A stretch of DNA of 45,170 nucleotides from an uncultured Selenomonadales bacterium (lineage in GTDB: Bacteria > Bacillota > Negativicutes > Selenomonadales > Selenomonadaceae), in contig CAMNPA010000001.1 of assembly GCA_946547205.1 (NCBI GenBank), forward strand, positions 1-45,170. The letters are read 5' to 3'. Below, piece by piece: positions 23,670 through 42,074 of this stretch. The notes beneath the pieces are model-generated. The model saw only the letters and a program-made list of their open reading frames with translations. It ran no database searches and was not told where the DNA came from. The translations under genes were made by a program, and so were the position numbers. Within the stretch, counting starts at the first letter, position 1. Every line of letters starts with the position of its first letter.

Positions 23670-23686
23670 TTACGCGGGTGATCATC

Positions 23687-24595: not shown

Positions 24596-24609
24596 TTGGA
24601 GGAACCTTC

Positions 24610-26090: not shown

Positions 26091-26093
26091 TTT

Positions 26094-27068
26094 ATGAAAC
26101 CGATTTACATTCAAGGCGTCGGAGTCATTTCAAGATTTGCGCTCAACTTTGAAGACTTGCTAAAAATCGCCGCCGATGAATCGTTTGCCATTAATTTTGA
26201 TAAGAAATTGTCTTTCGCGCCCAATGCGCCTTTGTCCAAAATCAGACGTGCTCCGCGTTATACTCGAATGGCAGTTTCTGCGGCGGCTCAAGCCAAAATC
26301 GACGCAAATTTATCTGACGACCAAGATAAAGCGCGCGTGGGAACGATATTTTCAAGCGGCTTCGGTTCTTTGGAAAGCACGTTGGAGTTTTCCGATTCAC
26401 TTTTGCCCGGCAAACCTGATTTGGTGAGTCCGATTTTGTTTTCTTATTCGGTTGCCAATGCGTGCGTCGGACAGATTTGCATTTTGAACGGCTTTACGGG
26501 CTTCAGCACATTGTTGACGGCAGGCGACCCTTTGGAATATTCCGCAATGTTGCTTGCGACCGATAAAGCTGACGTAATTTTTTGCGGCGCGACAGATGAA
26601 TACAACGAGGAACTTGACACTGCGATTAAGTCGTGCGGGATTTTGCAAGAAAAAATTTCTGACGGCGCGGCAGTGTTGATTCTTTCGACCAACGCAGAGA
26701 AAAGTTATTGCCGAATAAAAAAATTCTCTTCGGGCTCGCTGGCGGCATATCCTTACATTCACAAAACGGATACGGCTGACAGCGCGGAAGTTTTGGCGGA
26801 AATTTTTTCGGTTTATGAAGAGCCGGAAGTTATCTTAACGTCCTGCAACGGCTCTTACTTCGACGCGATAGAAAAAACTGTGCTGAAAGAAAAATTTAGA
26901 GCTGCCCGACTTATCGACGCGAAAAAATATTTCGGCGAGACTCTCGGCGGCGGCTATATGCTCAACGTGACATTGGGCGCGGCATTTATAAAGCTCGGAC
27001 GTTGCAAATCGTTGTTGGCTGCGGGAATCGACGTTCACGGCAATTATCTGACTGCATTTCTGGATTAG
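26094..27068 (+). CDS. KS-like partner lacking the catalytic histidines (chain-length-factor-like)
   Basis: 324 aa with a thiolase-fold pattern (SYSVANACVGQICILNG). The positions matching HGTGT and GH..GAAG read SCNGSYF and GETLGGGYM, so the His dyad is absent. Confidence 0.65.
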   Translation: MKPIYIQGVGVISRFALNFEDLLKIAADESFAINFDKKLSFAPNAPLSKIRRAPRYTRMAVSAAAQAKIDANLSDDQDKARVGTIFSSGFGSLESTLEFSDSLLPGKPDLVSPILFSYSVANACVGQICILNGFTGFSTLLTAGDPLEYSAMLLATDKADVIFCGATDEYNEELDTAIKSCGILQEKISDGAAVLILSTNAEKSYCRIKKFSSGSLAAYPYIHKTDTADSAEVLAEIFSVYEEPEVILTSCNGSYFDAIEKTVLKEKFRAARLIDAKKYFGETLGGGYMLNVTLGAAFIKLGRCKSLLAAGIDVHGNYLTAFLD

Positions 27069-27086: not shown

Positions 27087-29774
27087 TCAAGCAATTTGAC
27101 GCTTGACCAAATCGGAGAAAATTCCGTTCAGCGCAACGAGTTCATCAAACGTGCCGCTCTCAACGATTTTTCCTTTGTCGAGCACAATGATTCGGTCGCA
27201 ATCTTCAATCGTGCTCAATCGGTGCGCTACGACGATTCGCGTGACGTTCCGCTTGTTCAAACTCTCGGTGACAATGGCTTGAGTGCGATTATCGAGCGCG
27301 GAAGTTGCCTCGTCGAAGATTAAAATTGCAGGTTTGGCGGCTAAAGCTCTCGCGATTAAAATTCGTTGACGTTGTCCGCCGGAAATATTTGTCGAGCCTT
27401 CGCTGATGAAAGTTTGCATGCCCATCGGCATTTTTTTTATGTCTTCGTCGAGACCGGCGGCTTTTGCGGCTTCCCAAGCGTCTTCTTGCGTCAAAGCAGT
27501 CGCGCCGACAATGTTTGCAAAAATATCGCCGCTCATGAGTTGTCCGTTCTGCAAAACGACGCCCATTTGACTGCGCACCGACGAAACGTTGAGTTCCGAC
27601 AAGTCTTGACCGTCATAATAAACTGCGCCGCTTTTTGGCTCTTCAAAACCGAGCAGCAATCGGAGCAACGTCGATTTTCCGCAACCGCTCTTGCCGACAA
27701 TCGCAACGTTCTCGCCCGCCGCAATCCGAAAACTCATGTCGTCGACAACATTTGGCGAATCGGCTGTGTAGGAAAAAGTTAAATGCGAAACTTCAATCGC
27801 GCCGCTCAAAATGTCCGCGTCCGGCTTGTCGGCTGAAACTTCGGGCATCTCTTCCAAAATCGGTCGCAAGTTCTCTATCTGCGGCTGAATCACGAAGAAT
27901 TTTTCGATAAAGCCCGTCAGCGTGTTCAAAGCCATATTAAAACTCGTGAACGCTGCTTGAAACGCGATGAACTCCGCGAAGTCAATTCCCGATACGAAAA
28001 TTTCGCCGTTGAGTTCACCCAAAACGTAAAACGCCACGTAAAAAAGCAACAACGTCATTGTCAACGGCTGAATTGCCGCAAAAGTGTTGAGATATTTGGA
28101 TTGCAGACTCAGTGCATAATTCCATTTCCATTCCTCGCCGAAAACTTTGCTCCAGAGAAAATAAGCCTGCTCTTCCGCGCCGCCGATTCTGAATTTCGGC
28201 AAGCCCGTAAATATTTGCTGAACCATTCCCGAATTTGCATTCTTCGCCGCGACCCATTTGACTTGAAATTCTCCGAACTTGCGGCAGAGAAAAAACGTCA
28301 CTGCCACATAAAACAGCCACAAAACTAACGCCGCCGCCGTCAACTTCAAGCTGTACCAGCACATTAAAAGCAAACTCCAAAATGAAAACAGCACGTTGAG
28401 TATCGCCGCGATCATTTCGCCGCTTAAAATTTCTTTTATCTTTTCTATTCCCAAAATCCTCTGCGCCAGTTCGCCGGATTGAAAGCGTCGGAAAAAACTC
28501 GTCGGCAAAGCCAAGATTCTGCCCCAAAGTGCCGCTTCCGTCTGCATGTCGATATGCGACGTGATTCTCAGCACCGCGATTGAACGCACGATTGACACCG
28601 CCGCCATTGTGAACGCCGTGACGATTGAAACTTGCGTGACGATAACCAAGCCGCGCCTGTCGAGTATCGGAATTATGTCCGCGAAGATGCTTTGCGTGAT
28701 AATCGGCGTGACAATCGGAATTAAGCCCGCGACAAAACTTGCCGCCAAAATTTGACGATAATCGACGCGCCAAATGCGATTCAGCATGAATCTCATCAAG
28801 TCGACGAACTTCAACGGACGCAACGGCAAGCCCGCATAACATTGGAACGCGCTCGGCTCAATCTGCGCGGCAATTTGTTTGTCAATCAGAGTTCCGTCGA
28901 GATTTTTCGCGGTGATAAGTTTGTAAACGTCGGGACTTTGCGGAATGAACGCTGCAAGCTCTTTCTTGTCGCCGAAGTAGCCGATAAAAATTCCGCTGTC
29001 CTTTTGAAACCAGTCGCCTTCCAAAGTCACGAGTCGCATTTGCATATTTGCCTTTTGCACGAGACGACGAATCAAACCGATTTGATCGAGGTTCTTGGCA
29101 ATTTCCGGAGCAAGTCGCAGATTATTCGCGGGCATACCCAAAAATTTGGCGACACTCTTAACGAGGAAAGCAATTTCTTCCAATTTGCCTTCGCCGCCGG
29201 AATCTTCGCCGTACAGTGATTCTTCGCCGCGGAGATTGTCAATCGCCGCGTTGATGAGATTTTTTTTGTGACGACTGCGAGTTTCGAGCCGCATTTCCAA
29301 TCGTTTATCTTCCGCATCAAAACGCATGCCGAGCAGCATCGCGAAAATCTGTTCGTTTTCGGTGAAGTCGTCGAGCAAAGTTTCCAAGTCGTTTTCCGAG
29401 CCGCGCAGGACTTGTCCGTTTATCCACGGGATTAACACATCGTCGCCTTTGTCAGCCAAAAGTTTAAGCCACGGCAGCTTTATCAAATTTTGGAACCACG
29501 CGCGCATTAAATTTGCCTGTTCGAGCGGCGAAACTTCGTTGAACGATAAAATTTCAAGCTCCGAATCTTGCACGGCGTAAATTTGCATGTCGATTTGCTC
29601 AAATTCGTCCAGCGACGGATAAGCAGCTCCGTTTATCGGCAGCTCCATTAAAAAAATTTGTCGGAATGATTCTTTTAATTGAGTGACGGCGTAAACTTCA
29701 GCCGCGCCCGATTTCAGGCGAACAAATTTATTTTCGTCGTGCAGTTTAAATCGTTGTCCCGCCAAAAGTTTCAT
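27087..29774 (-). CDS. ABC exporter (TMD+NBD) with a ~330-aa N-terminal non-peptidase domain; second ABC of an NHLM-type bacteriocin export cassette
   Basis: Walker A GKSGCGKSTL, signature ISGGQRQRILIARAL, Walker B ILIFDEATSALD. The N-terminal extension has no C39 Cys/His motifs. The ATG at 29774 is preceded by GGAGG and overlaps the upstream stop (ATGA). The track start at 29945 is an extension inside the upstream gene. Confidence 0.85.
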   Translation of the reverse strand: MKLLAGQRFKLHDENKFVRLKSGAAEVYAVTQLKESFRQIFLMELPINGAAYPSLDEFEQIDMQIYAVQDSELEILSFNEVSPLEQANLMRAWFQNLIKLPWLKLLADKGDDVLIPWINGQVLRGSENDLETLLDDFTENEQIFAMLLGMRFDAEDKRLEMRLETRSRHKKNLINAAIDNLRGEESLYGEDSGGEGKLEEIAFLVKSVAKFLGMPANNLRLAPEIAKNLDQIGLIRRLVQKANMQMRLVTLEGDWFQKDSGIFIGYFGDKKELAAFIPQSPDVYKLITAKNLDGTLIDKQIAAQIEPSAFQCYAGLPLRPLKFVDLMRFMLNRIWRVDYRQILAASFVAGLIPIVTPIITQSIFADIIPILDRRGLVIVTQVSIVTAFTMAAVSIVRSIAVLRITSHIDMQTEAALWGRILALPTSFFRRFQSGELAQRILGIEKIKEILSGEMIAAILNVLFSFWSLLLMCWYSLKLTAAALVLWLFYVAVTFFLCRKFGEFQVKWVAAKNANSGMVQQIFTGLPKFRIGGAEEQAYFLWSKVFGEEWKWNYALSLQSKYLNTFAAIQPLTMTLLLFYVAFYVLGELNGEIFVSGIDFAEFIAFQAAFTSFNMALNTLTGFIEKFFVIQPQIENLRPILEEMPEVSADKPDADILSGAIEVSHLTFSYTADSPNVVDDMSFRIAAGENVAIVGKSGCGKSTLLRLLLGFEEPKSGAVYYDGQDLSELNVSSVRSQMGVVLQNGQLMSGDIFANIVGATALTQEDAWEAAKAAGLDEDIKKMPMGMQTFISEGSTNISGGQRQRILIARALAAKPAILIFDEATSALDNRTQAIVTESLNKRNVTRIVVAHRLSTIEDCDRIIVLDKGKIVESGTFDELVALNGIFSDLVKRQIA

Positions 29775-31984
29775 TGGCTTGCCTCCGCCGTATTTTTGGT
29801 GCTGCCTTGAATCAATCTGCGATAAGCTCCGTCGTGCTGAATCATTTCGCGATGAGTGCCGCGTTCGACGACTTTGCCTTTGTCCAAAACAATAATCTCG
29901 TCGCAGTCTCTGATTGTCGAAAGTCTGTGCGCCACGATAAAACATGAACAGCCGCGCCGCCGAATATTTTCCAGAACAATTTTTTCGGTCACGGGATCAA
30001 GTGCACTGGTTGCCTCGTCCAAAACCAGAATCGACGGATTGTTTGCCAAGGCGCGAGCAATTTCGAGCCTTTGACGCTGACCGCCCGAAAAATTCAAGCC
30101 GCCTTCGGAAACTTGAGCCTCGTAGCCGCCTTCGAGTTTCAAAATGTCGTCGTGAATGCAAGCGTCCTGCGCCGCGCGGATAACGTCATCTTTTTTGGCG
30201 GAAGTATCAAACAGCGTGATATTTTCGCGAACGGTGCCCGTGATTTGGAAAATGTCTTGGTCAACGGACGACAGCGAATTAACAATGACATCGCGCGGAA
30301 TTTCACGACGAATCACACCGTCAAAGAGAACGTCGCCGCTCCATTCCTCATAAAAGCCCGTCAAAATTTTTGAGAGCGTCGATTTTCCGGAACCGCTGAA
30401 ACCGACAATCGCGACCCAACGTCCCGGCTCCACGTGCAAATTAAAATTCTCCAAAAGCGGCGGCTCAAGCGGACTGTAGCCGAAATTTACGTTGCTCAAT
30501 TCAATTTCGCCCGATAAGCGCGTGCCGTTGAAATTATTTGCGCGAGTTTCTTCGGGATAATTCAAACCGTCGACTTGATAGCGATAAACGTCGTCGAGGC
30601 GTTGCATTTGCATTTCCGTCGTCTGCAAAGTCGTTCCGAGTTTAACCATTTTATCGACCGGCTCTTGAAACCTGCCCATCAAATTTTGAAACGCCGTAAA
30701 AATGCCCGCCGTCATCACGCCTTCCATAATCGAAAAGCCGCCGAGTGTGATTATCAGCGCGGAATTTATTCCCGTGAGCAGAGTCGGCAAAACATTCATC
30801 GTCAGCGACTTCATTTGAACTTCTTGCGTGCCGATTAAAGCTTTTGAGTGATAGCCTGCCCATTTCGCGAAAAAATCGCTTTCGTTGCCGTTCGCCTTGA
30901 TAGTTTCGATAATCGCCAGTCCGTTTACCGCAACTCCGAATTCTTTTCCGAGTGCCTGCTGAACTTGCATATTCATATCCGTAATTTGTCGGCGCAAAAG
31001 AAAAAAAACGATTAAATCTACGACGCTGAAGCTCACGCCGATAATCGTCAGTGTCACGCTGTATTGAAACAGCAACGCGAGATAAAACAGCGCGATAAGA
31101 AAATCCAAGACAGCCGTTGCCGCTTGATTCGCCAAAACTCTTGAGATTAAATCGATGAAACTTACTCGCGACGCTATTTCGCCCGCGTATCGTTGCTGAA
31201 AGAAAGTCATCGGCAATCTTAGGACGTGCCAAAAAAATCTTGACGAGTCGGAGAGCGTCAATTTCTTTTGCCAGCGCGTCAGCAAAATCGTTCGCAAAAT
31301 GTTGAGAATGCCCGTCAAAATGATTGTGCCGATCATCGCCAAACATAACTTCGGCATCCAATCGGGATGTTTGCCGCTCAAGATGTCGTCGAGAAAAATT
31401 TGATTGAACACGGGCGACGCCAGACCCGGAAAAATCATTGCCGCACCAATCAGCATGACGAAAATCATTGCAACTTTATCTTGAGCGAGTTTTTCCGAAA
31501 TGGCTTTGACGACGCTGTATCTTTGACCTTCGCGCCTAAAATTTTCGTCGGGCTTGAACGTCATCGCAATGCCGGTGTAAGACGTGGAAAAATCTTTCCA
31601 AGGAACTTTTCGCCGACCCATCGCCGGATCGTTAAGATATGCAACGTCGCCGATAATGCCTTCCAAAACGACGAAATGATTGAATTCCCAATGGATTATC
31701 ATCGGGAAAGTTTTTTTCTTTAAAGTGTCCGCCTTCCAACGAAAAGCTTTTGCTTCCAAGCCGAGATGTTTAGCCGCTTTTAAAATGTTTGCCGCTTTGG
31801 AGCCGTCGCGATTGACGCCGCATTCTTGACGCATCTTTTCGAGCGGAACCCAACGTCCGAAACTCGCCAAAATCATTGCCAACGCCGCCGCGCCGCATTC
31901 GACAGACTCCATTTGCAAAATCGTCGACACCTTCACGCGCGAACCGTCTTTTGCCGCGAAAAATTTTTTTATCTTGCCAATCAT
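29771..31984 (-). CDS. Bacteriocin-processing ABC exporter with N-terminal C39 cysteine peptidase domain
   Basis: C39 motifs: QMESVECGAAALAMILASFG (catalytic Cys) and IIHWEFNHFVVLEG (His). Walker A GFSGSGKSTL, signature FSGGQRQRLEIARAL, Walker B ILVLDEATSALD. ATG at 31984; the track start at 32053 is a TTG. Confidence 0.9.
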   Translation of the reverse strand: MIGKIKKFFAAKDGSRVKVSTILQMESVECGAAALAMILASFGRWVPLEKMRQECGVNRDGSKAANILKAAKHLGLEAKAFRWKADTLKKKTFPMIIHWEFNHFVVLEGIIGDVAYLNDPAMGRRKVPWKDFSTSYTGIAMTFKPDENFRREGQRYSVVKAISEKLAQDKVAMIFVMLIGAAMIFPGLASPVFNQIFLDDILSGKHPDWMPKLCLAMIGTIILTGILNILRTILLTRWQKKLTLSDSSRFFWHVLRLPMTFFQQRYAGEIASRVSFIDLISRVLANQAATAVLDFLIALFYLALLFQYSVTLTIIGVSFSVVDLIVFFLLRRQITDMNMQVQQALGKEFGVAVNGLAIIETIKANGNESDFFAKWAGYHSKALIGTQEVQMKSLTMNVLPTLLTGINSALIITLGGFSIMEGVMTAGIFTAFQNLMGRFQEPVDKMVKLGTTLQTTEMQMQRLDDVYRYQVDGLNYPEETRANNFNGTRLSGEIELSNVNFGYSPLEPPLLENFNLHVEPGRWVAIVGFSGSGKSTLSKILTGFYEEWSGDVLFDGVIRREIPRDVIVNSLSSVDQDIFQITGTVRENITLFDTSAKKDDVIRAAQDACIHDDILKLEGGYEAQVSEGGLNFSGGQRQRLEIARALANNPSILVLDEATSALDPVTEKIVLENIRRRGCSCFIVAHRLSTIRDCDEIIVLDKGKVVERGTHREMIQHDGAYRRLIQGSTKNTAEASQ

Positions 31985-31988
31985 GCCG

Positions 31989-32948
31989 TCACCTGCTCCT
32001 AAGCCGTTGACTGATCTTGTAAAAAACTTTTTCAATCGGCGGTTGTCGCTCAATGATTATCGAGCCCGTGCAAAAACTTCCGGGCGTTATCGGTTTGTGC
32101 TCTCCGACAATCGAAGTCCACAGGTAGCCCGACTCCGAATCTTCATCCTTAACCAAATCGAATTTAATTTCCATGAGCGCGCTGTTTTGAGAAGTTTGAA
32201 TCCACTGCGCAAGTTGAGCGTTGCCGAGTTTTTGACGGATGCTTTCCGCAGAAACGGGATATTGCGAGACTGCACGCACGACGCCGATTAGACTGCCTGC
32301 TTGCGAAGTGTCCACGCCGTTTGGAACAAGTTGAATCGTCATGCCCGGCTCAACACGCTTGCCTTTGTCGACAGGAATATAAAAAACGCCTTTCAAGTCG
32401 TCGCGATTTTGTGTAAGGCGAATCGTGCAGACAGGCGAGCCGCTTGAAATAACTTTGCCCTTCTCAATCAAAACTTCGTCAATAATTCCGTCGTAGTCGC
32501 TGTAAATGTATTCGGCAATGTTAAGCTGCTCTTTCTTCGCGCCGTATTGATAAACTCTGTTCAAAGCGTCGCGGTCGCTTGAAGCAAGTCCCATGCCGTA
32601 TTGCGCCATTCGAGTATCAGCCGATTGAGACGCCTGTTCGAGTTGCGCAATTAAATCGCCGCTATGAACATGAGTTCCGGTTTTTACGTAGACAGCAGAA
32701 ACTTTGCCGCCGGATATGTGCGAAACGTTCACGACGCCTGCAGAGTCCATGATAAGTCCCATGCCGTTAGCTTTGACCGTGAACGCGCCGAAGATTGACC
32801 ACAGCACGATTGAAAACAGCAAAAGCAAAATTGCCGCCATCATGACCCAACCTATCGGCGTCGTTATCGGAAAAAGCATGTCCAAACGTTCGGGCGAGCG
32901 CAATTTATTCAGTGCCTCTTTACTGAAGAGCCGATCTTGTTTAGCCAA
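31989..32948 (-). CDS. HlyD-family secretion adaptor (NHLM-type bacteriocin secretion protein)
   Basis: N-terminal LFSKEALNKLRSPERLD, then TM IGWVMMAAILLLLFSIVLWSIF, lipoyl-like ISGGKVSAVYVKTGTHVHSGDLIAQL, and a beta-barrel C-terminus. No ATG lies upstream of the TM. TTG at 32948 sits 9 nt after AAGGAG. TTG at 32966 or 32978 are alternatives. Confidence 0.75.
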   Translation of the reverse strand: MAKQDRLFSKEALNKLRSPERLDMLFPITTPIGWVMMAAILLLLFSIVLWSIFGAFTVKANGMGLIMDSAGVVNVSHISGGKVSAVYVKTGTHVHSGDLIAQLEQASQSADTRMAQYGMGLASSDRDALNRVYQYGAKKEQLNIAEYIYSDYDGIIDEVLIEKGKVISSGSPVCTIRLTQNRDDLKGVFYIPVDKGKRVEPGMTIQLVPNGVDTSQAGSLIGVVRAVSQYPVSAESIRQKLGNAQLAQWIQTSQNSALMEIKFDLVKDEDSESGYLWTSIVGEHKPITPGSFCTGSIIIERQPPIEKVFYKISQRLRSR

Positions 32949-34194
32949 TGTCGCCGTCTCCTTCAAGCGTAAAATCAACTTTCATACCGTCTTCAAGGTC
33001 TTCGGTGCCGCTCGTTACGACCAATTCATTTTCCTTCAGACCGTGCACGACTTCGATAAAATTTCCGTCGTCCGAACCCGTTTCAATCTCACGCCGAAAA
33101 ATTTTCCCGTCAGCTGCGACGAAAACTTCATTCCGTGCCGGCGAAGTCATTGCGCTAAGCGGTACCGTCAAACAATTTCGCGGGCTCATCATCTGCAAAG
33201 ACGGCGCGTTATACGTTTGCGGCTCAAGGAGACCTGCGCGGTTATCAATTTCCCAGAGAATTTTTCTGATGTTCGCGGGAACTTCAGGCGACGGAGTTAT
33301 TTCGATGATTTGCGCAGTAAATTTTTGCTCGCTGCCCGAATTGCCTGCCTCGTATTCCGTATCGTAAATCTTGGAAAAATTTGCGTGGCTGAAACGGAGC
33401 GTCGCCACATCTCCGATTTTAAATCGCTTGGTGAATTTGTCTTCAATGTCAACGGAAAAATTCAGCGTCCGAAAATCGCCGACCAAAGCCATCGCCGTTC
33501 CTGCCGTCACATACGAGCCTTGCGTTTTGTACAAAATCAAAACTTCGCCGTCAATCGGTGCGGTTATTTCGCTGTATGAACTCTCAATCAAGAGCTGTTC
33601 TTTCTGCGCGATTAAATATTCTTTCTGCACAAGCAACGATTTCTTTTGAAGGTGTGAATTTTGAAGATTAACCTGCGCTTCTTTGTATGTCGCTTCGATT
33701 TCTTCAAATTTTTCGGTCGAAACTGCGTCTTGAGCAATCAGTTGGCTGTAGCGTTCAAAATCACTCTTCGCGCGTACCAAATTCGTTTCCGACTTCATTA
33801 TTTCGTTGTCCGCCCGCAGAATTTCATTTTCAATCTTGAGAATGTCAATGTCAGCCTGCCGAAGTTTTACCGATTGCGTGTCGTTCGTCACCGTGAATAA
33901 TTTTTGCCCTTGAACAACGCGATCATTTTTCCGCACGTCAATTGAAGTTATTCTGCCGTCGAGCAACGCCACTGCGTCCGTCATTTTGTTTGAATAAAGA
34001 TTCAACGTATCGAGTGCCAGTCTCGGCTTGAGTTGTCGCATTTGAACTTTCGCGCCGCGCAGTGGAATTGTCTGGTTGCTCATTCGCTCCGCTATTTGAT
34101 TTTCGCCGCGCTGATTCAAATATGTCCCGTATGCCACCAGTGCGATTATCAGGACTAAAATAATTCCCAAGCCTATAAAAAATGGTCGTTTCAT
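32941..34194 (-). CDS. Second membrane-fusion (HlyD/RND-adaptor-like) protein
   Basis: N-terminal anchor MKRPFFIGLGIILVLIIALVAY. Lipoyl-like halves LDGRITSIDVRKNDRVVQGQKLFTV and ITAPIDGEVLILYKTQGSYVTAGTAMALV are separated by a coiled-coil region. Confidence 0.75.
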   Translation of the reverse strand: MKRPFFIGLGIILVLIIALVAYGTYLNQRGENQIAERMSNQTIPLRGAKVQMRQLKPRLALDTLNLYSNKMTDAVALLDGRITSIDVRKNDRVVQGQKLFTVTNDTQSVKLRQADIDILKIENEILRADNEIMKSETNLVRAKSDFERYSQLIAQDAVSTEKFEEIEATYKEAQVNLQNSHLQKKSLLVQKEYLIAQKEQLLIESSYSEITAPIDGEVLILYKTQGSYVTAGTAMALVGDFRTLNFSVDIEDKFTKRFKIGDVATLRFSHANFSKIYDTEYEAGNSGSEQKFTAQIIEITPSPEVPANIRKILWEIDNRAGLLEPQTYNAPSLQMMSPRNCLTVPLSAMTSPARNEVFVAADGKIFRREIETGSDDGNFIEVVHGLKENELVVTSGTEDLEDGMKVDFTLEGDGDIG

Positions 34195-34230
34195 TGAACA
34201 ACTACTTCCTCAAAATTTTTTTTACAAACT

Positions 34231-36765
34231 TTAAACTACGCGGCAATTCAGCAAGTCAATATTACTTAAAGTTTCTGCAGTCAACTCTACATCGTAACGC
34301 GCACACAAATTTTGAACCATGTCGATATAAACTGCAGTTGCTTTGGCATTTTCTCCCGCGCGAATCAAGGTATAAGTTTTCTCTATAAAATTCTTCCAAA
34401 GATCGCAGTAAATTTTTTCTGCATCAGTCTCCGAATTTATCTTTTGCACCAACAGTGGAGCAACTCGATAATATTCTTTGATAAGGTCGGCTATGACGGG
34501 ACTTTCCATTTTCATTTCGTCGCGATAAGCTCGAAGTGTGTTAAGTTCCTCGCAGTCGTCGGGCTTATGTAACGCCGCGCACGCCGCACCGGTGATGACG
34601 CAAAAGCTACTGCTAGAGGAAGATTCATGAGATATGTATTCTACTCGCGCCGTGGGTGTCTTCTTTTTTTCTTGAATTTTACGGGCGTTGGCGGATTTCC
34701 ATTTCTTTACTTTTGTAAACTCTTCGTCGGCTTTTTTGTGACCCAGAGACATTGCTTTTCCAAAAAATTTTTCTGCCGCGTCCAAATCCTGCGAAAAAAT
34801 TCCGTCGGGATATTGATACAATCTGCCGCGTTTGTAATAAGAATCTGCACTCTCGCATTGCTGCCACCATTCCAAAGCGCGCCGATCATCTTTTAAAACG
34901 TGATACAGATCGCCGATTCGTTCTTTAACCGAAAGATCGTTTCCGTCTTTTAAAACTTCTTGGTAAATTTGAATGCAGCTCATAACTTGATTTTTTTCGG
35001 CTTCAGTCAAAGCGTGTTGCCCGGCGTGAAGTTTAAACAGCCTTTTGGCAAAATCATCAGCCAAAATTTTTATCGCCGGAATGTAAGCTTTTACTGCCGC
35101 AAGTTTAAAATATCTGTTGGCAGCCGCGTAACGATTTTTTGCCAAATTCATCTCGCCCAGCGCGAAATTTGCTTCCGGAACCATTTGGTCGGCCAAAATC
35201 TGAAGTGCTTTAAAATCTCCGTCGGCAAGCTCAAAAAGTTTTTTTCCCGCCGGTGCAAAGTCCAATTTAAGTGCGCGCTTGTAATAGTTCACTGCATTTT
35301 TCTTATCGCCTGCGTGTTCTTCCCATAATCCGCGAAAATAATTTTCTTCGGGACTTTCAATTAAATTTATGTCGCGAGCGATTTGCATATAATCAAAATC
35401 AGAAAAACGCAATTCCTTGGTAAGGCGCAGTTTTGCACGCCGAATAAATTCGTTATCGGTTTCGCGACGCAAACGCATCAACGCATCTGAATTTACGTGT
35501 TCGCCCTTCGCCGATCGAAAAATCATTTCGTAAACATAGCAATAAACATCAGCGACTTGATTTAAATTTTTCATGTACTCCACAGCCATTTTAAAATCGC
35601 CCAAGTCCACTGCTTTAAAAAATATTTCGCGCCAAATTTCTTTTGTATGTTCGGAACAAGGCATAATTTTTTTAGAGCCCATGTGATTTTCAACGGCGCA
35701 TTCATATTTTCTTGCTTGCTCCAAAAGCGACAGAGAAGCCGCCCGCAACGTTTCATATTCGCGTTCGACGACATTAAGTTCTTGACGAGTTTCCGACTCC
35801 AAGTCCTTTATATTCTTTTTGGTTTCGCTCATCGTTATCAAAGTGATGTCGCGAATTATTTGGCTCTTATCGTCTCGCAGCTGTCGAATTCTTTTCTCGT
35901 AAAAATATCTGATGTCCAAGAGTCTGCTTCTTACCGTGTCGGCAAAATTGCAGTTTCGACGCAGGATATTCAGCTGCTCAAACGCGGAAAAAATCTTGTC
36001 TTCGAGCAGGATAGAAATTTCTTTAAGCTTGTCGTCCCGCCTCAATATTTCCACGTTCTGCGTGACACAGTTAAAAGAAATCGGATGCAGATTTTTACGC
36101 TTTAAAAACTCGTCAAGCAGTTTACGTTTTTTTATCTTGTCGGAAGGTTCGGAGATGAAAATTGAAATCGCGTTCAGCTTTTTTAAAATCGTCTCGGCAA
36201 ATGGAGTCTCCGCATAAAAATATTCGGGAAAATATATGACGGCGATATTTTGGAATCTTCCGGCTTGTTTCAGGAGAAAAAAACGCAGTATTTGCGGCAG
36301 CTTTATATCGCTGCGCCACAGCGAGCCGGTTGCTTGCCGGTATTCGCTCAAACTCAAATCAATCACGTTGCCGACATCATTTATCGCCGCAATCTTTTTA
36401 TTTCCCACAGTTAAAATCGCCATCAAATTTGTATCGAGCATCAAATTCTCTGCCGTTTCGGAGTCCGTGATATTTTCGATAAAATTTTTGATTAAAGTCC
36501 TGTCGAAGCCCACAATTCCGACAAAAGTTTTGCCGATAAGTTCAGGGAATGTCTCAAAAATTTCCATGTCGTCCGCAGCTTTTATGAGTTCCTCAAAAAT
36601 CTTGTCTTTTTCCGGAAAAGACGATTCTTCCAATGCCACACGAAAATTTTTGTTCAGTTCATTATAAAAAGCCTCGCGAACTTCACGGAAAAAATATTTC
36701 TGATTAGATTTGTCGGCGTTTAACAGCTTGGCTACGAGTTCAATGTTTTCCTGTGCACTGCTCAT
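34231..36765 (-). CDS. 844-aa multidomain protein: N-terminal dynamin-like region with degenerate P-loop, coiled coil, Sel1/TPR repeats, Ser-rich linker, Cys-containing C-terminal module
   Basis: FVGIVGFDRTLIKNFIENITD aligns position for position with the P-loop segment IVAIVGRFSAGKSGFINSLTTD of the upstream GTPase but lacks GKS. Sel1-like: AVNYYKRALKLDFAPAGKKLFELA, ANRYFKLAAVKAYIPAIKILAD, AEKFFGKAMSLGHKKADEEF. The tail SSSSSFCVITGAACAALHKPDDCEELNTLRAYRDEM...EYYRVAP has unknown function. Confidence 0.6.
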   Translation of the reverse strand: MSSAQENIELVAKLLNADKSNQKYFFREVREAFYNELNKNFRVALEESSFPEKDKIFEELIKAADDMEIFETFPELIGKTFVGIVGFDRTLIKNFIENITDSETAENLMLDTNLMAILTVGNKKIAAINDVGNVIDLSLSEYRQATGSLWRSDIKLPQILRFFLLKQAGRFQNIAVIYFPEYFYAETPFAETILKKLNAISIFISEPSDKIKKRKLLDEFLKRKNLHPISFNCVTQNVEILRRDDKLKEISILLEDKIFSAFEQLNILRRNCNFADTVRSRLLDIRYFYEKRIRQLRDDKSQIIRDITLITMSETKKNIKDLESETRQELNVVEREYETLRAASLSLLEQARKYECAVENHMGSKKIMPCSEHTKEIWREIFFKAVDLGDFKMAVEYMKNLNQVADVYCYVYEMIFRSAKGEHVNSDALMRLRRETDNEFIRRAKLRLTKELRFSDFDYMQIARDINLIESPEENYFRGLWEEHAGDKKNAVNYYKRALKLDFAPAGKKLFELADGDFKALQILADQMVPEANFALGEMNLAKNRYAAANRYFKLAAVKAYIPAIKILADDFAKRLFKLHAGQHALTEAEKNQVMSCIQIYQEVLKDGNDLSVKERIGDLYHVLKDDRRALEWWQQCESADSYYKRGRLYQYPDGIFSQDLDAAEKFFGKAMSLGHKKADEEFTKVKKWKSANARKIQEKKKTPTARVEYISHESSSSSSFCVITGAACAALHKPDDCEELNTLRAYRDEMKMESPVIADLIKEYYRVAPLLVQKINSETDAEKIYCDLWKNFIEKTYTLIRAGENAKATAVYIDMVQNLCARYDVELTAETLSNIDLLNCRVV

Positions 36766-36768
36766 AAA

Positions 36769-38034
36769 TCATACCTTCTCCGCTAAATGCATGAGATCAT
36801 CAAAATCCCTGTGAATCTTTTCGGCGAGATATTTAAATCTCTTCTTGTTTCCTTGCAACCTGCCGTATTTCTGACACACACGGCTATAAATGTGCACTAA
36901 AGATTTAATTGCAAGAATGTCCATGGCTTTATATACGCTGTCGCCCAATTCGTGTTGACGGTTTCCGGTCGATTCAATTGCCTTATCAAAATCTTTGTCA
37001 ATGGAACGAGTCAAGTTTTTCAATTCGGTTTCCACGTCGTGACTGCCCGCAGCATTTTGACCGGCGAAGTCCAGAAATTGCGCGACAAGATTTTTGCCGA
37101 AATATTCTTTTCCTTCATGCGACGAATAGGCCGTAATGCCGAAAATTTTAACGCCTCTGTTCTTTAGAATTTGCTGACCGTGCTCGACTATTGCCCGACA
37201 ATCGCTTTCCGTCTTTCTGTCTGCTTTGTTCACGACGACGAGCACAGGATTTTCTATCGCCACACGTTGAATGAAATCTATATCTTTATCAACGATGCCA
37301 TCATCAACTGTAACGAGCAATATCAAAAAATCCGCCGCTTTGACTTGTTGTTCGGCAAGATATTCGTCCGTCATGTTTTCGCGAGTATCAATGTCCGCTT
37401 TGTTATAGCCGGGCGTGTCCAGAAAAATAATTCGGTCTCGTTGCTTTGCGGGAAAATTCGGCGTGTATATCACAAGATTTCCTATGAAGCGCGAAAAGCC
37501 TATCTTGTACTCTTCAAAAAATCTGTGCGTCATCGCCTGCATTGCGTCCATATCCAAATTTATTGTTCGCCCGCCGGAATAAGCTTGAATTACTTCCTTT
37601 TGACCGCCGACAATATAAGTGGGAATTGAAGTGGTCGGGTTTTGGTCTTCAGGTAAAATAATGCGGCTGTCCGTCGTCAAAGAATTTATAAAGCCGGATT
37701 TTCCTGCGCTGAAACGTCCGACTATGGCAACAATCGATTTTCCAGACAGCAGGCGAACTTTTTTATACTCCATAATTTTATCGCTTAGCCGCGTGAGCTG
37801 ACGACTGAGCGCGAGAGTATTTTTTCCCAAGTCCTTAAGCGTCAACAGAATTTCATTGTCCAGCATGTAATCGAGTCTGCCGGCAATTTTGTCCGTGGAA
37901 GTTTTTTTCTGATTGTCCGGCAAAAGCTTTGCGATAAGCTCCAAACCTTTTTTCGGGTCGGCAAGATAAGGATTTTCTTCCTGCTCTGCGTCGGCGGTAT
38001 CGAGAACTTCATTAACGTCATCAAAAAAACCCAT
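36769..38034 (-). CDS. Dynamin-like GTPase (short, 421 aa)
   Basis: G1 IVGRFSAGKSGFINSL, G3 FLDTPGYN, G4 VVNKADR. Its start lies 3 nt after the upstream stop. Confidence 0.8.
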   Translation of the reverse strand: MGFFDDVNEVLDTADAEQEENPYLADPKKGLELIAKLLPDNQKKTSTDKIAGRLDYMLDNEILLTLKDLGKNTLALSRQLTRLSDKIMEYKKVRLLSGKSIVAIVGRFSAGKSGFINSLTTDSRIILPEDQNPTTSIPTYIVGGQKEVIQAYSGGRTINLDMDAMQAMTHRFFEEYKIGFSRFIGNLVIYTPNFPAKQRDRIIFLDTPGYNKADIDTRENMTDEYLAEQQVKAADFLILLVTVDDGIVDKDIDFIQRVAIENPVLVVVNKADRKTESDCRAIVEHGQQILKNRGVKIFGITAYSSHEGKEYFGKNLVAQFLDFAGQNAAGSHDVETELKNLTRSIDKDFDKAIESTGNRQHELGDSVYKAMDILAIKSLVHIYSRVCQKYGRLQGNKKRFKYLAEKIHRDFDDLMHLAEKV

Positions 38035-38037
38035 GAT

Positions 38038-40293
38038 TCATACTCCACGCAATTTGTTTTTGCATTCGGCGACGCGGGCAATAAATTCTTTGTAGCGTTT
38101 AATGCTGCCTTCTTTGTCCTGCAAATTTTTCTGTATGTGAGTAATTCGCGTCTCAATCGCCTTTTTAACATCGTCCGTGAAATAGATTGACTGTTCCTTG
38201 AGCGTAGCTTCAATTTGATTGGCTTTTTCTTCGAGCTTAGCGGTTATGTCGCCGGCGATTTTGTTTAGAACTTTGGTTTGTTTAAGTTCAAGGCGCGAAA
38301 TATCTTCATCTTGAACTTGCGCGGACGGGAACTCTTCAAAAATCATCTGATGATATTTTTCGGCGTCGACAACGGAAAAATCGGGAATCGTCACCTTTGA
38401 AAGCACCAGCTCGACGGGAATTAAAATGTCGTTTTCGTCAAAGTCGGCGTCTGCCCTTTGAAAAGCGCGAAGAACTACCTGTTTAATTCTGTTGCGAATC
38501 TCGCCGATGTTAATCGCAAATTTTAATCCCTCGGCAATATTTTTCTCGGCAGCGGCGATATAACTTTGCAGGTTCCTAACGACATCGCTCACATTCGCCG
38601 TGTGATAAATCACCGTGACTTCGTAGGGCACGCGTTCCGTAAAGAAAATCAAAAAGCTTTCCTCGCGATAACGAGTTTCAGTTTTCTGTCCTTCCGAAAT
38701 GGCTATGTCGGTGTGTTCGTCAGCCCGCGCCTTTATCTGTTGAGCAATCTCGACGATATATTTTTTCGTGTCAACTGCGCAAAGATCGAAGGTCTTTTCA
38801 ATGTCGCGGCGCATGGCGATAAGTGCGTTTTGACTTGTCTCCAATTTCTTTTGCAGCTCCGAAAAGTCGGTGGTTTCCGTCAAGCGCAACATCTGTTCGG
38901 CTTCGCTCTGAATCTCGTTAATTTGTCCGGCAAAAGATAACGTCTGGTCTTTTATAAATTCCCGGCTGCGTTCGGCGATAATGTTTTCCTTTTCAGCACG
39001 AATTTTTTTGAATTCTCTGTCGCGCAAACGGTCAATGTTGGCAAGTTCGCGCAAAAATTCGGAATCGGTATTCATTCCCGTAAAACGTTCAACCATCCGT
39101 GTTAAAATGTGCGCTTCCAACTCGTTCAAATCTTCTTTGGCGGAAAGTTTGCGTGAGGCACTGTAAAAAATCGACGATATGTAATAAAGCGACCTGTCTT
39201 CGGCAAGCTGACGTTTGGTTTCCTCTTCGACGCGCTTTAAAACTGCGGCATGTGAATAGGATTTTTCGGCTTGGCGTGCAGCTTCGATAACACGTTCCGC
39301 GCTCTCATTGAGCTTGCGCATCGTCCGCGCATAAACAACTTTAAGCGGCTCTCTGTTTCGCGAAGGATTGTCCAAAATCGCCGAATCAAATTTACTGCCG
39401 ACAATCACGGCGTGATTTATGCTCTCGCCCGGCAAAGTCTTAACGATCAGCGAAATATCCTCGTTGCTCATAAATTGCGGCGTGGGACTTAGAATGAAGA
39501 CGAGATCGCAAGCCATTAAAAATTCTTTCGTCTTCTCACTGCGCGACGTAATCGGATCGCCAAGACCGGGCGTATCGACAATCTCAATGCCTTTGAGCAG
39601 CTCATTTTTAACGGTCATTTCAATCCATTTCACGATTGGCGTATATTTGCCGTGTGCCCCTACGTATTGTTCCAAATCTCTTTGAAGATTGGAAACGGAA
39701 ATTTCTTGCGTCATGCCCAGCTTCGATAAGATTTTATCATCGTCGGCAGCCATGTCGGTTAATTCTTTGCAGGCGCGATATTGTGCAGGAATTTTGCTTT
39801 TTATGCTCTGAATCTCGCCGGGTGTCAACTCAATGTCTTGGCTGTAGTCCAAGTTGCGCTCTGCATTTGCCTTTTTGCGTGCTTTAAGGTTTGCTTCGCC
39901 GCGCTGCAGTTCGTCATCAAAAAGCTCGGAATTTCTTTCGATAACTGACCAATCGCTTGCGCTGTAAAAAACTACCTTTGCGCCGGGCCGGTCAGCATAT
40001 GAAATTTTTGTTAAAGCCGCAGTCATGGGCGTTGCCGCCTTGGGCAGAATGTCTTTGCCGTCAAAAATCAGCGCGTTCAAGAACGACGATTTGCCTGCTT
40101 TCACTTGACCGACTATGCCAATTTTCAAGTCGCGATTGGTAATCAGAATTTCTTCCGCATGAGTTTTCGCACGCCGAACTTTTTCTTCAAAGTCGCGGAT
40201 ATAATCCGGGTTGACAAAATTTTCTCCGCCTTTAAGCTTTTCGAGGATGCCTTCAATCTTCTGAAGGAACTCGGCGCAATTTTGATTCTCCAT
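38038..40293 (-). CDS. Dynamin-like GTPase (751 aa) with long helical stalk
   Basis: G1 GIVGQVKAGKSSFLNAL, G3 IVDTPGLGDP, G4-like VGSKFD. The C-terminal ~400 aa is helical and charged. The ATG at 40293 is preceded by AGGAG; the track start at 40380 is an extension inside the upstream gene. Confidence 0.85.
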   Translation of the reverse strand: MENQNCAEFLQKIEGILEKLKGGENFVNPDYIRDFEEKVRRAKTHAEEILITNRDLKIGIVGQVKAGKSSFLNALIFDGKDILPKAATPMTAALTKISYADRPGAKVVFYSASDWSVIERNSELFDDELQRGEANLKARKKANAERNLDYSQDIELTPGEIQSIKSKIPAQYRACKELTDMAADDDKILSKLGMTQEISVSNLQRDLEQYVGAHGKYTPIVKWIEMTVKNELLKGIEIVDTPGLGDPITSRSEKTKEFLMACDLVFILSPTPQFMSNEDISLIVKTLPGESINHAVIVGSKFDSAILDNPSRNREPLKVVYARTMRKLNESAERVIEAARQAEKSYSHAAVLKRVEEETKRQLAEDRSLYYISSIFYSASRKLSAKEDLNELEAHILTRMVERFTGMNTDSEFLRELANIDRLRDREFKKIRAEKENIIAERSREFIKDQTLSFAGQINEIQSEAEQMLRLTETTDFSELQKKLETSQNALIAMRRDIEKTFDLCAVDTKKYIVEIAQQIKARADEHTDIAISEGQKTETRYREESFLIFFTERVPYEVTVIYHTANVSDVVRNLQSYIAAAEKNIAEGLKFAINIGEIRNRIKQVVLRAFQRADADFDENDILIPVELVLSKVTIPDFSVVDAEKYHQMIFEEFPSAQVQDEDISRLELKQTKVLNKIAGDITAKLEEKANQIEATLKEQSIYFTDDVKKAIETRITHIQKNLQDKEGSIKRYKEFIARVAECKNKLRGV

Positions 40294-40303
40294 AAAAATT
40301 CTC

Positions 40304-41983
40304 CTATGCACGTTCAATTTGACCGATAATCTCTTCCAGCCTGTGAATGTCCGCCGACAGTTTCGATTTTTTTTGCTCAACGGCAGTCACGCGGTCAGCC
40401 TTTTCGTCTTTGAGTTGTTGAAGGGCAGATATTTCGTTGTCGAGTGTGGCCTGAAATTCTTCCTCAAGCTCCGTCAGTCGTTCGTCTTCAACTTTTAAAA
40501 GTGCCTCGCGAATCTCCGGCCGAAGCTTGTCGCAAATTTGCGGAATAACTTCATGTTCAATGCGCTCACGCAATTTTTCTTCTTTGGAGCGACCAAGCAA
40601 ATTGTTCAACGCGCCGACAATATCGGGCAAGAAAATTATAATCAATTCAAGCCACGGAGCTACTACACTTGTTGTAAGTGCCAGACCCGTCGAGAACATT
40701 TGGTACATGCCTTTATATTTTTTTGCCTTCGCGAAAATTTTTCCGCCTTCGACAATCGCTTTCAACGCGCCGGCAGTTTTTCTTATCTGTCCTTCCGCCT
40801 TGTCAACATCTATCGGCTCCTGTCGATCCGATTCTATAATCGTGTCAATGTAATTGTCAAAGCTCGCGTCAATGTTTTGTTGAGTGGACTGCAAAATTAT
40901 CGGGCGAATGATGTCGTTGACCGCCGAATTAAATTCCATGCTTCCCTGTTGAGCAGAGTAAACCAACGTTCCCATTTGCTTTTTGAGGCCGGCTTCCACG
41001 TCCTGCAGAATTTTTTTCGGAACTTCCTGCTGCAAGGAGTTATGTAATTTTTTCTTCTCGCGTTTCATCGACAGGATGACGGAATTTTTTCGTTGCTCTT
41101 GATTTCGAATTGCAAAGTCGAGATCGTGCGGATTGAATTCCAAAGCTGAAAGTTGCATTTCCAGCGTCTGAACGGTCTGCCTGAGCAGCGTTATAACTTT
41201 ATTGCCAAGTTTCTGCAAAAGAAGTTCGTCGGAAGAAAAATTTCCCAAAAGTGCCGCGACTTTTTCGCCGCAGTCCGAATCATGCTTCGAGGTCACGATA
41301 AGCGAAACGTTCTTGCCCAAAATTTCTTTCAGCGCAGTTTCTATGTTCTCCGTCACGTTTGCAACATCCGTCGGCAACAATTTATCGCGCTTGGTCAGGA
41401 CAAAGGCAATCGACGTGCTGTATTCTTTTATCTCGTTCAAAAAATTTAAGGTGCTTTCGCCCACGGTGCCCTTTTCCAAATTCACGACAAAAACATAGGC
41501 AGCGGCGTCACCAAGATATTGCAGCAAAGCTTTATTGTGTGCCTCGATGCCGGAATCAAAGCCGGGCATATCAACCGGAATCAGATCGTTAATTTTTTTC
41601 AACCGCTCGTTGTTAAGATGATAAATGCACTTGCCGTAATTTTTGGCAGGAATTTTTTCCGCGTGCTGCAACGAGTATTCGCAGCTTTCGCCGTCATCCG
41701 TGACGCAAACAATCTTTTCGGCGGGACTGTAAATCAATTCGGCAGACACGGCTGTTTCAGGCGGAATGTCTTCACGCAAAATTTCTTTGTCGCCCAAAAA
41801 TGAATTGAGCAACGCCGATTTGCCGGCACTAAAACTGCCGACAAATAAAATCTTGGCGGAAAAATCTTCGATATTTTTTTTGCGCTCCACAAAACGCGGT
41901 CGAAGTATATCATTTTCCGCTTGATGACTGATTAAAATTTCTTCCGCTTCGTTAAGACAGTGAAGCAATTCGGTTTTGTTCAT
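40304..41983 (-). CDS. Dynamin-like GTPase (559 aa) with membrane-insertion hairpin
   Basis: G1 FVGSFSAGKSALLNSF, G3 PVDMPGFDSG, G4 VLTKRDK. Hydrophobic paddle MFSTGLALTTSVVAPWLELIIIFLPDIVGAL before a terminal coiled coil. RBS AAAGGAG precedes the ATG at 41983. Confidence 0.85.
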   Translation of the reverse strand: MNKTELLHCLNEAEEILISHQAENDILRPRFVERKKNIEDFSAKILFVGSFSAGKSALLNSFLGDKEILREDIPPETAVSAELIYSPAEKIVCVTDDGESCEYSLQHAEKIPAKNYGKCIYHLNNERLKKINDLIPVDMPGFDSGIEAHNKALLQYLGDAAAYVFVVNLEKGTVGESTLNFLNEIKEYSTSIAFVLTKRDKLLPTDVANVTENIETALKEILGKNVSLIVTSKHDSDCGEKVAALLGNFSSDELLLQKLGNKVITLLRQTVQTLEMQLSALEFNPHDLDFAIRNQEQRKNSVILSMKREKKKLHNSLQQEVPKKILQDVEAGLKKQMGTLVYSAQQGSMEFNSAVNDIIRPIILQSTQQNIDASFDNYIDTIIESDRQEPIDVDKAEGQIRKTAGALKAIVEGGKIFAKAKKYKGMYQMFSTGLALTTSVVAPWLELIIIFLPDIVGALNNLLGRSKEEKLRERIEHEVIPQICDKLRPEIREALLKVEDERLTELEEEFQATLDNEISALQQLKDEKADRVTAVEQKKSKLSADIHRLEEIIGQIERA

Positions 41984-42024
41984 TCGAGATAACTCCTTTT
42001 TAGATTCGTGATTGAACGCTTGAA

Positions 42025-42074
42025 ATAATAACGAAAATTAACAAGCTCCGCAAGCACATTGACCTGCAGAGCTT
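42025..42074 (-). terminator. Possible terminator/attenuator hairpin between the RTX gene and the dynamin operon
   Basis: Minus-strand AAGCUCUGC-14 nt-GCGGAGCUU (9 bp including one G-U pair) followed by the U-rich GUUAAUUUUCGUUAUUAUUUC. The large loop and interrupted U-tract make this weak. Confidence 0.3.

Follow-up and report, generated by a model that had tools for sequence, protein, structure and literature searches.

We analyzed a stretch of 45,170 nucleotides from an uncultured Selenomonadales bacterium (contig CAMNPA010000001.1 of assembly GCA_946547205.1; this whole stretch is called the window below), in which eight consecutive minus-strand genes extend from position 41983 down to position 27087. 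The first four encode three dynamin-like GTPases, here called Dyn1, Dyn2, and Dyn3, and a fourth protein, P4, which joins a GTPase-related N-terminal domain to helical repeats; the last four (MFP-A, MFP-B, C39-ABC, and ABC2) encode a peptide exporter. An earlier note on this DNA had treated the eight genes as one operon in which the dynamins might protect the producer of a membrane-active lipopeptide, or release the peptide in vesicles. Our comparisons indicate instead that the region very probably consists of two independent modules. As far as sequence and gene order can tell, Dyn1-Dyn2-Dyn3-P4 is an autonomous, horizontally distributed four-gene cassette, and the exporter is part of a biosynthetic gene cluster (BGC) for a peptide made by ribosomes and modified after translation (RiPP) that carries a lipid. 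Taking the interpretation as a whole, we think it likely that the 15-kb "operon" represents two independent accessory modules joined in one rumen/gut lineage of Selenomonadaceae, the first of them an envelope-protection/anti-phage module.

Linkage of the cassette and the exporter

Six contigs (L001-L004, L008, and L009; comparison loci carry such numbers throughout) were found to carry P4 homologues with 57-74% identity. All have the order Dyn1-Dyn2-Dyn3-P4, and the genes that come after P4 differ: BREX genes, a histidine kinase, a chemoreceptor followed by ribosomal proteins, RtcB, or unknown genes. A metagenome scan with a 16-sequence P4 alignment, in which the open reading frames (ORFs) were examined by hmmsearch, yielded 23 loci in which a P4 homologue is complete or nearly so. 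The four-gene order is complete in 19 of these, preserved but cut by the contig end in three, and in one the upstream sequence is missing. Cassette loci span P4 identities of 22-99% and a locus GC content of 27-58%, and an all-against-all comparison of the flanking ORFs found no recurrent flanking gene family and no fifth cassette gene. The distribution appears sporadic: Patterns specific to close relatives found two loci in 185,579 species-representative genomes, and cluster look-ups for distant P4 members returned one named member, Selenomonas bovis.

Outside the window lineage, 17 non-redundant cassette loci were compared and not one has the exporter; among the 23 metagenome P4 loci exporter genes occur in L016 only. 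Reciprocally, no dynamins were found near the exporter in any of six non-redundant exporter/BGC relatives (L010/L011, L012/L013, L096, L097, and L098, all with RiPP genes, and L014). MFP-A is 53-84% identical in the five RiPP-linked relatives and 76% identical in L014, whose contig ends just past MFP-A. It heads the MFP-A/MFP-B/C39-ABC/ABC2 operon in L010-L014 and L096-L098, and what lies upstream of it in relatives varies widely: a type III CRISPR-Cas system, a resolvase with a helix-turn-helix methyltransferase, a Ser/Thr kinase, a radical S-adenosylmethionine (rSAM) enzyme with precursors, or a relaxase with insertion sequence elements.

The two sets of homologies also meet at a sharp boundary. 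When five independent cassette loci were compared with the window by blastn, the alignments were confined to positions 34247-41997, that is, to the four cassette genes. Cassette homology ends at 34247-34283, and that of the exporter/BGC relatives starts at 34225/34223 and runs downwards. Because the cassette and BGC homologies each stop at the P4 stop codon, the alignments place the meeting point of two separately inherited blocks there, at ~34226-34246. Since no cassette locus elsewhere has the exporter, no exporter relative has dynamins, and the block boundaries meet at the seam, a conserved functional partnership between dynamins and exporter is not indicated by these comparisons, and the proposal that the dynamins act as self-protection or vesicle-release partner of a RiPP exporter is not borne out.

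The P4-MFP-A junction itself was found in the window, L016 (99% identity), and L007 (95%) only. The fusion of the dynamin set to the exporter, which the earlier note had thought undescribed, is therefore physically real in three independent assemblies but lineage specific. The note had itself named an adjacency unique to this genome as a reason to abandon its proposal, and in substance this is what we observe, the only other carriers being two near-identical contigs. One might suspect an assembly chimera, with the modules adjacent in no real genome, as the sequences derive from metagenome assemblies. However, the same junction is present in L016, a separate record, and in L007, which comes from another sample and has its own deletion; we regard a chimera as exceedingly improbable. 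The L007 deletion removes 640 bp (window 32843-33484 is missing; L007:5364-6925), cuts MFP-A to 236 aa, and leaves MFP-B without its first ~45 residues, and what that contig has of the cassette (Dyn3, P4, and the 3′ part of Dyn2) aligns uninterrupted. In L007 the exporter beside the cassette may be decaying, or the contig may be an assembly variant.

No terminator-like site was detected in the 36-nt seam between P4 and MFP-A, and no sigma-70-like promoter site was predicted within ~1.4 kb upstream of MFP-A. A region of 345-415 nt that lies upstream of MFP-A in L010 and L014 is missing from the window. Because the gap is free of a terminator and the usual upstream region of the exporter is gone, read-through is the most straightforward expectation, and in the window lineage the exporter is probably transcribed in this way from the cassette.

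These features are also what speaks for the idea that the RiPP exporter has a dedicated partner in the multi-dynamin set, either for self-protection or repair against the lipopeptide or for vesicle release of the peptide or of the RTX-repeat protein encoded upstream of Dyn1. The modules abut across the terminator-free gap at which the upstream region of the exporter is lost, the arrangement recurs in three assemblies, and there are precedents in the response of DynA to nisin-like pore formers (PMC6104087) and in the effect of LeoABC on vesicle release (PMC4159319). Yet the adjacency is limited to one lineage (the window, the 99% contig, and the 95% contig), and both reciprocal counts given above are zero, including L010, which has an identical core peptide (KGGDCDPNRAPHLN). 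In L007, moreover, it is MFP-A and MFP-B that the deletion has disrupted, the cassette genes on the contig aligning throughout. A strong terminator stands between the RTX gene and Dyn1, and elsewhere no RTX gene is found beside the cassette. We consider a dedicated partnership unlikely, and its conserved-linkage form is already largely refuted.

The four cassette proteins

All three dynamin-like proteins score above the gathering score of 27 with the Pfam Dynamin_N model (52.8, 74, and 55.1 bits for Dyn1, Dyn2, and Dyn3, respectively). In the same order, their P-loops read GSFSAGKS, GQVKAGKS, and GRFSAGKS; their G3 motifs DMPG, DTPG, and DTPG; and their G4-type motifs TKRD, SKFD, and NKAD. These motifs are strongly conserved. 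G1 (GxxxxGK[ST]) and G3 (D[MT]PG) of Dyn1 are preserved in 24 out of 24 family members examined, the Dyn2 P-loop core VKAGKS in 24 out of 26 aligned members and its DTPG in all 26, and G1 and DTPG of Dyn3 are unchanged in 28 out of 28.

For each of the three we searched a family profile of 16 diverse homologues against the PDB sequences. The Dyn1 profile matches Nostoc BDLP (2j68, 2e-13), Cj-DLP2 (5owv_C, 2e-11), and IniA (9e-10; the alignment spans Dyn1 aa 16-342), and also Fzo1, Cj-DLP1, and SynDLP. That of Dyn2 matches Cj-DLP1 (5owv_A, 2e-22) and BDLP (6e-15), and that of Dyn3 matches Der/Era-type GTPase (G) domains together with mini-mitofusin-2 (6jfk, 7e-6) over almost its whole length. 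LeoA was absent from the PDB matches of all three profiles. By their motifs and profiles, Dyn1, Dyn2, and Dyn3 are dynamin-superfamily GTPases, and the earlier description of three complete G1/G3/G4 GTPases, as well as the dynamin fold it assigned to them, holds. The hydrophobic stretch that it called a paddle in one dynamin is also present: It lies at aa 430-465 of Dyn1, and an alignment of 16 diverse homologues shows it to be conserved, T438, P443, and P453 being invariant. No other segment of the cassette looks membrane-insertable, Dyn2 and Dyn3 being without a hydrophobic segment.

Pfam and NCBIfam scans of P4 gave no GTPase match, and a sequence search of its N-terminal domain (P4-N) against the PDB gave nothing meaningful. 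The relationship emerges from profile comparison. Aligned with hhalign, aa 3-311 of P4 match aa 26-371 of Dyn3 with a probability of 98.6% (E 6e-16; 39 P4-N against 28 Dyn3 sequences). This value depends on alignment depth: Shallow alignments gave 57%, and deeper alignments built from metagenome loci raised it to 98.6%. Opposite the GxxxxGKS motif P4 has GFDRTLIK and opposite DTPG it has YFPEY, both positions being variable within the P4 family, and the G4 equivalent is likewise degenerate and variable. Because the homology to Dyn3 is accompanied by G motifs that are degenerate across the P4 family, the P4 N terminus is, by these alignments, an old inactive paralogue of Dyn3 that has lost G1, G3, and G4. 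This agrees with the fold signature and degenerate P-loop originally noted for the fourth protein.

Predicted structure alone is insufficient to settle the pseudo-GTPase claim, although it points the same way. An AlphaFold2 model of the whole of P4 (pLDDT 77) consists of an alpha/beta domain with helices on its flanks, a long helical hairpin, a repeat solenoid, and a helical C-terminal domain. Foldseek matches to this model are dominated by TPR/Sel1 proteins (LceB 8sxq, 3e-6), with BDLP 2j68 at 6e-4. For the N-terminal model the top three matches are mini-mitofusin-1 structures (5gnt/5gns/5gnr, E 9e-4 to 5e-3), in a weak model (pLDDT 62) and at TM scores of 0.22-0.27.

The Sel1 label given earlier to P4 is right in part. 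The central repeats are TPR/Sel1-like by structure, yet Pfam TPR_2 is sub-threshold at 26.4 bits (PF08238 Sel1 is present in some homologues), and the label leaves out a C-terminal CFI-box domain. NCBIfam NF041770 (CFI_box_CTERM) matches P4 with 35.1 bits and E 8e-9, under its 40-bit cut-off. The domain is well conserved: C722 is invariant in 16-sequence alignments; C722, C729, and EYY (764-766) are at least 90% conserved in 55 members; and EYYR[VI]AP is found in 39 out of 39 P4 family members. Close relatives of P4 share four conserved cysteines (C722, C729, C738, and C821). An exhaustive phmmer search with aa 1-380 delimits a P4 family of 72 representative clusters, mostly of 820-880 aa. We had considered that the family might be restricted to close Selenomonadaceae, when a word-indexed search gave 18 clusters, and dropped this with the exhaustive search. 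CFI-box domains also end many other gut/rumen metagenome proteins, independently of the dynamin cassette (L039-L095).

With regard to mobile elements, a tblastn search with Dyn2 matched, at 26% identity and E 1e-8 over the G domain, a region of an unannotated 386-kb Staphylococcus jumbo phage (OR844988.1:46408-47058). P4-N had zero matches in 72,556 plasmids, and a 49-residue match at the edge of a viral contig (L015) was uninformative. A mobile-element origin was rejected on these results.

Gene layout, exporter cluster, and other genes

The tight packing of the eight genes reported earlier is confirmed by the ORF listing, translation, and a junction script. From gene 1 to gene 8, the intergenic gaps are 10, 3, 3, 36, -38 (probably about -8), 4, and -4 nt, and AGGAG/GGAG-type ribosome-binding sites are embedded in the ends of the upstream genes. 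Several starts differ from those of the ORF list. Dyn2 likely starts at the ATG at 40293 (MENQ) and not at an upstream TTG; C39-ABC and ABC2 most likely start at the internal ATGs at 31984 and 29774, which are not the first in-frame starts; and comparison with relatives suggests that MFP-B starts ~10 codons further in. An Rfam scan of the window gave zero matches.

Table 1. Coordinates of the cassette, the seam, the exporter, and associated features in the window
Feature	Position	Strand	Description
Terminator-like hairpin	42043-42074	-	13 bp plus T-rich tail; between RTX-repeat gene and Dyn1
Dyn1	40304-41983	-	559-aa dynamin-like GTPase, BDLP/Cj-DLP2/IniA type; gene 1 of cassette
Dyn1 hydrophobic segment (putative paddle)	40589-40696	-	aa 430-465, ...STGLALTTSVVAPWLELIIIFLPDIVGAL...; Kyte-Doolittle 19-mer maximum 2.06
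Dyn2	38038-40293	-	751-aa dynamin-like GTPase, Cj-DLP1/BDLP1 type
Dyn3	36769-38034	-	Short 421-aa dynamin-superfamily GTPase; G domain plus helical bundle, "mini-mitofusin"-like
P4	34231-36765	-	844 aa; pseudo-GTPase, coiled helical hairpin, TPR/Sel1-like solenoid, CFI-box C-terminal domain; last cassette gene
P4 pseudo-GTPase domain	35833-36759	-	aa 3-311; hhalign to Dyn3
P4 TPR/Sel1-like helical repeats	34666-35652	-	aa ~372-700; DSSP helix pairs on model, Foldseek Sel1/TPR matches
P4 CFI-box C-terminal domain	34390-34602	-	aa 722-792; C[FV]ITxAxC...DDCEEL...EYYR[VI]AP; preceded by Ser-rich linker
Seam	34195-34230	-	36-nt gap; GAGGAAG ribosome-binding site, no hairpin
MFP-A	32941-34194	-	417-aa RND-type periplasmic adaptor; TIGR01730 131 bits
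MFP-B	31989-32978	-	NHLP bacteriocin system HlyD-type secretion protein; TIGR03794 216 bits (cut-off 156)
C39-ABC	29771-31984	-	C39 peptidase/permease/ATPase; TIGR03796 994 bits (cut-off 853); Pfam Peptidase_C39 5e-35
ABC2	27087-29774	-	Second NHLP ABC permease/ATPase subunit; TIGR03797 767 bits (cut-off 709)
Lipo-RiPP cluster, non-exporter part	21718-27068	mixed	Precursor, rSAM/SPASM, GNAT, ACP, KS, KS-like
Nif11-like precursor	23181-23477	-	98 aa; ...ELEAVAGG|KGGDCDPNRAPHLNK, core after GG site

Two membrane-fusion proteins and both ABC exporters directly follow the cassette, as the earlier note had it. MFP-B, C39-ABC, and ABC2 exceed the NCBIfam equivalog cut-offs for the nitrile hydratase leader peptide (NHLP) bacteriocin export system, and the exporter adjoins a GG-leader precursor gene, which together identify it as such a system. 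Convergent with it on the plus strand, at 23642-27068, are GNAT, acyl carrier protein (ACP), ketosynthase (KS), and KS-like genes, and beyond these, on the minus strand, come the Nif11-like precursor and an rSAM/SPASM enzyme. Because these genes stand beside it, the exporter is assigned by gene content to a GNAT-acylated NHLP/Nif11-type lipo-RiPP cluster (cf. PMC8784127). It shares with the "selidamide"-like cluster of that type the exporter genes, the Nif11-like GG leader, GNAT, and rSAM/SPASM; the present cluster differs in coming from Negativicutes, in having MFP-A as an additional RND-type adaptor, and in its dedicated ACP, KS, and KS-like genes. The closest named relatives of both P4 and MFP-A are Selenomonadaceae metagenome-assembled genomes from rumen samples. 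They belong to the diderm Firmicutes, so periplasmic adaptors fit.

Among the relatives of the cluster, the core peptide KGGDCDPNRAPHLN recurs unchanged in L010 (83% DNA identity), and L010/L011 also carry lipidation genes. L012/L013 have no GNAT, ACP, or KS genes and encode other cores (YTCQGIGTKGFCELVHW) and a second small GG-leader peptide. L010 is the closest dynamin-free relative of the RiPP cluster; directly upstream of its exporter is a complete-looking type III CRISPR-Cas system (Cas10, RAMPs, Csx19, Cas6, Cas1, and Cas2; L010:1-9585). A partner-switching set near the exporter, comprising a STAS protein, an anti-sigma-type kinase, a dCache-HAMP-SpoIIE phosphatase, and DUF7005, occurs in the window (17790-21725) and in L012, L096, and L097, which suggests a conserved regulatory module of the RiPP cluster. 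In the distant relatives L096 and L097, an OEP (TolC-like outer-membrane factor) gene comes after ABC2 and DUF7005 (L096:18013-19452 and L097:18024-19457); there is none beside the window exporter.

Further genes in the window include that of the RTX-repeat protein (42096-45149; ORF of 1017 aa, the window ending 21 nt beyond its first in-frame start), and no type I secretion genes specific to this protein were seen in the window. A NusG-family gene at 12301-12864 (TIGR00922 153 bits; the LoaP model matches with 82 bits, short of its cut-off) has Sel1/TPR genes on either side. SecE and L11 neighbours are absent beside it and are present around a 71%-identical NusG in L003; the window NusG may be a specialized paralogue or mark a rearranged locus. 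The run of Sel1-repeat genes at 7436-14361 (7436-8758, 9658-10848, 10906-12276, and 13645-14361) is accompanied by a calcineurin-like phosphoesterase, and a WYL/WCX regulator lies at 14256-15530.

Neighbours, relatives, and proposed role of the cassette

To describe the surroundings of the cassette, 130 flanking ORFs at 19 non-redundant loci were scanned with PADLOC at E <= 1e-15, with Pfam and ORF clustering added. Strong PADLOC matches flank the cassette in at least six of the 19 loci. Downstream in L001 are BrxP (801 bits) and BrxC (819 bits). In L024 a bona fide pair, LeoBC (254 bits) and LeoA (252 bits), shares the strand of the cassette and stops 4 nt short of Dyn1, so that five dynamin-family genes and a pseudo-GTPase gene follow one another in a row (L024:1028-12574). 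The L029 flanks encode a restriction enzyme of type I (1156 bits), together with matches for specificity and methylase, and a WYL regulator; in L023 a WYL regulator lies 4 nt past P4. A DRT-type NERD-helicase (236 bits) lies directly downstream in L037, with homologous ORFs in the same place in L036 and L021. RtcR-CARF is found in L030, RtcB in L008, and DpdF and mad5 matches at further cassette loci. Judged by gene content, the flanks of the cassette suggest a defence-island context.

A different reading is that the cassette serves Negativicutes as a housekeeping machine for membrane dynamics, such as division, the biogenesis of vesicles or of the outer membrane, or an engulfment like that of sporulation, and not for stress or defence. 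DLPs (dynamin-like proteins) act in Streptomyces cytokinesis, as cited in PMC6104087, and L003 and L020 have ribosomal proteins and a Trp/Tyr-family class I tRNA synthetase, respectively, as neighbours. Housekeeping systems normally retain synteny, however, whereas the cassette appears sporadic (the two loci among species-representative genomes mentioned above), its flanks vary at every locus, locus GC content covers 27-58%, and defence genes often lie nearby. We judge a housekeeping machine to be quite improbable.

Literature searches combining dynamin with BGC or bacteriocin, with Sel1 or pseudo-GTPase, and with WYL or defence island returned no description of the cassette or of a dynamin-RiPP link. 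The closest architectural precedent is the dlp1-dlp2 operon of Campylobacter jejuni. Proteins of the HcpA family are Sel1-repeat proteins. An HcpA-like gene, cj0413, is putatively included in the cj-dlp1/2 operon (PMC6104087; PDB 5OWV/5OXF). Both systems have an adjacent DLP pair of two subtypes, the best PDB relative of Dyn2 being Cj-DLP1 and Dyn1 matching Cj-DLP2; both consist of cytosolic proteins, and a membrane-repair role has been proposed for the Cj pair. The cassette differs in having four genes and not three, with the short GTPase Dyn3 in addition, and sequence identity is low. Its repeat protein is part of a fusion, P4, with a pseudo-GTPase derived from Dyn3 and a CFI-box domain, whereas C. 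jejuni has a small secreted HcpA-like protein.

LeoABC, which in effect represents two DLPs, one of them split in enterotoxigenic Escherichia coli (PMC4159319; LeoA PDB 4AUR), resembles the cassette, as does Eleos, in being a multi-gene DLP operon on an accessory island. Eleos, however, has two DLPs and neither a pseudo-GTPase nor a repeat protein, in contrast to the four genes here. We rejected the identification of the cassette as Eleos because of this architecture and because Dyn1 scores only 41 bits on LeoA, Dyn3 27 bits on LeoBC, and Dyn2 has no match, compared with 252-254 bits for the true LeoA/LeoBC pair of L024. With Bacillus subtilis DynA and Mycobacterium IniA/IniC the cassette shares dynamin-superfamily GTPases, which in those systems are proposed to seal or remodel damaged cytoplasmic membrane, and IniA is among the PDB relatives of Dyn1 (9e-10). 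DynA, however, is a fusion of two DLPs, the NCBIfam DynA match here reaching 33 bits with an equivalog cut-off of 1600, and IniBAC is a different gene set.

In the interpretation that we prefer, then, module A (41983-34231, Dyn1-P4) would be distinct from module B, which comprises 34194-27087 together with the GNAT/ACP/KS, precursor, and rSAM genes and would be an ordinary NHLP/Nif11 lipo-RiPP cluster. None of the four cassette proteins has a signal peptide, so that action on the cytoplasmic face is expected: Dyn1, Dyn2, Dyn3, and P4 would be cytoplasmic and would come together at the inside of the cytoplasmic membrane as a hetero-oligomeric complex driven by GTP. By analogy with Cj-DLP1/Cj-DLP2, Dyn1 and Dyn2 may represent a canonical membrane-tethering DLP pair with the Dyn1 paddle as its anchor. 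Dyn3 and P4 could form an asymmetric pair of active and pseudo-GTPase G domains, and the TPR/Sel1 and CFI-box parts of P4 may recruit, gate, or regulate the machine. Under phage attack, or when membrane-active compounds are present, such a complex would tether, reseal, or remodel damaged membrane. Module A would then be an envelope-protection/anti-phage module, in principle like B. subtilis DynA or Eleos, a role that we propose because of the defence-gene neighbours. Taken by itself, the assignment of a defence or membrane-repair role to the cassette is tentative, and we place it somewhat short of even confidence.

Several points weigh against this interpretation. With LeoA/LeoBC scores this low, the cassette resembles a validated defence system only remotely. 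Roughly a dozen strong PADLOC matches among 130 flanking ORFs, counted without a matched control, are suggestive only, and several loci have housekeeping or metabolic neighbours (ribosomal proteins, a Trp/Tyr-family class I tRNA synthetase, a lactate permease, and an alpha-galactosidase). The role is argued from sequence and gene context, and the stoichiometry and pairing within the complex are guesses by analogy with the C. jejuni pair; complex formation, function in membrane repair or defence, and co-transcription are all what we infer. Finally, read-through co-expression is likely in the window lineage, so the modules may interact locally, for example in protection from the cell's own lipopeptide, much as DynA gives protection from nisin. 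A more far-reaching version is possible but doubtful: The cassette could be a new type of membrane-based defence, against phages or envelope damage, in which P4 senses an insult and switches on a three-GTPase machine that reseals or remodels the membrane; here it would have been captured as the part of a lipopeptide exporter operon nearest the promoter, and repair and export would be co-expressed.

The independence of the two modules is a caution against taking the 15-kb "operon" as evidence that RiPP exporters recruit dynamins. What recurs is a fixed set composed of two full-length DLPs, a mini-DLP, and an old, inactive paralogue of the mini-DLP that is joined to a repeat scaffold and to a domain containing cysteine. 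This makes the cassette a tractable system for the regulation of bacterial DLP hetero-oligomers, with the active/pseudo-GTPase pair as a candidate switch, and it could test whether membrane-repair dynamins form a broader anti-phage/anti-toxin class.

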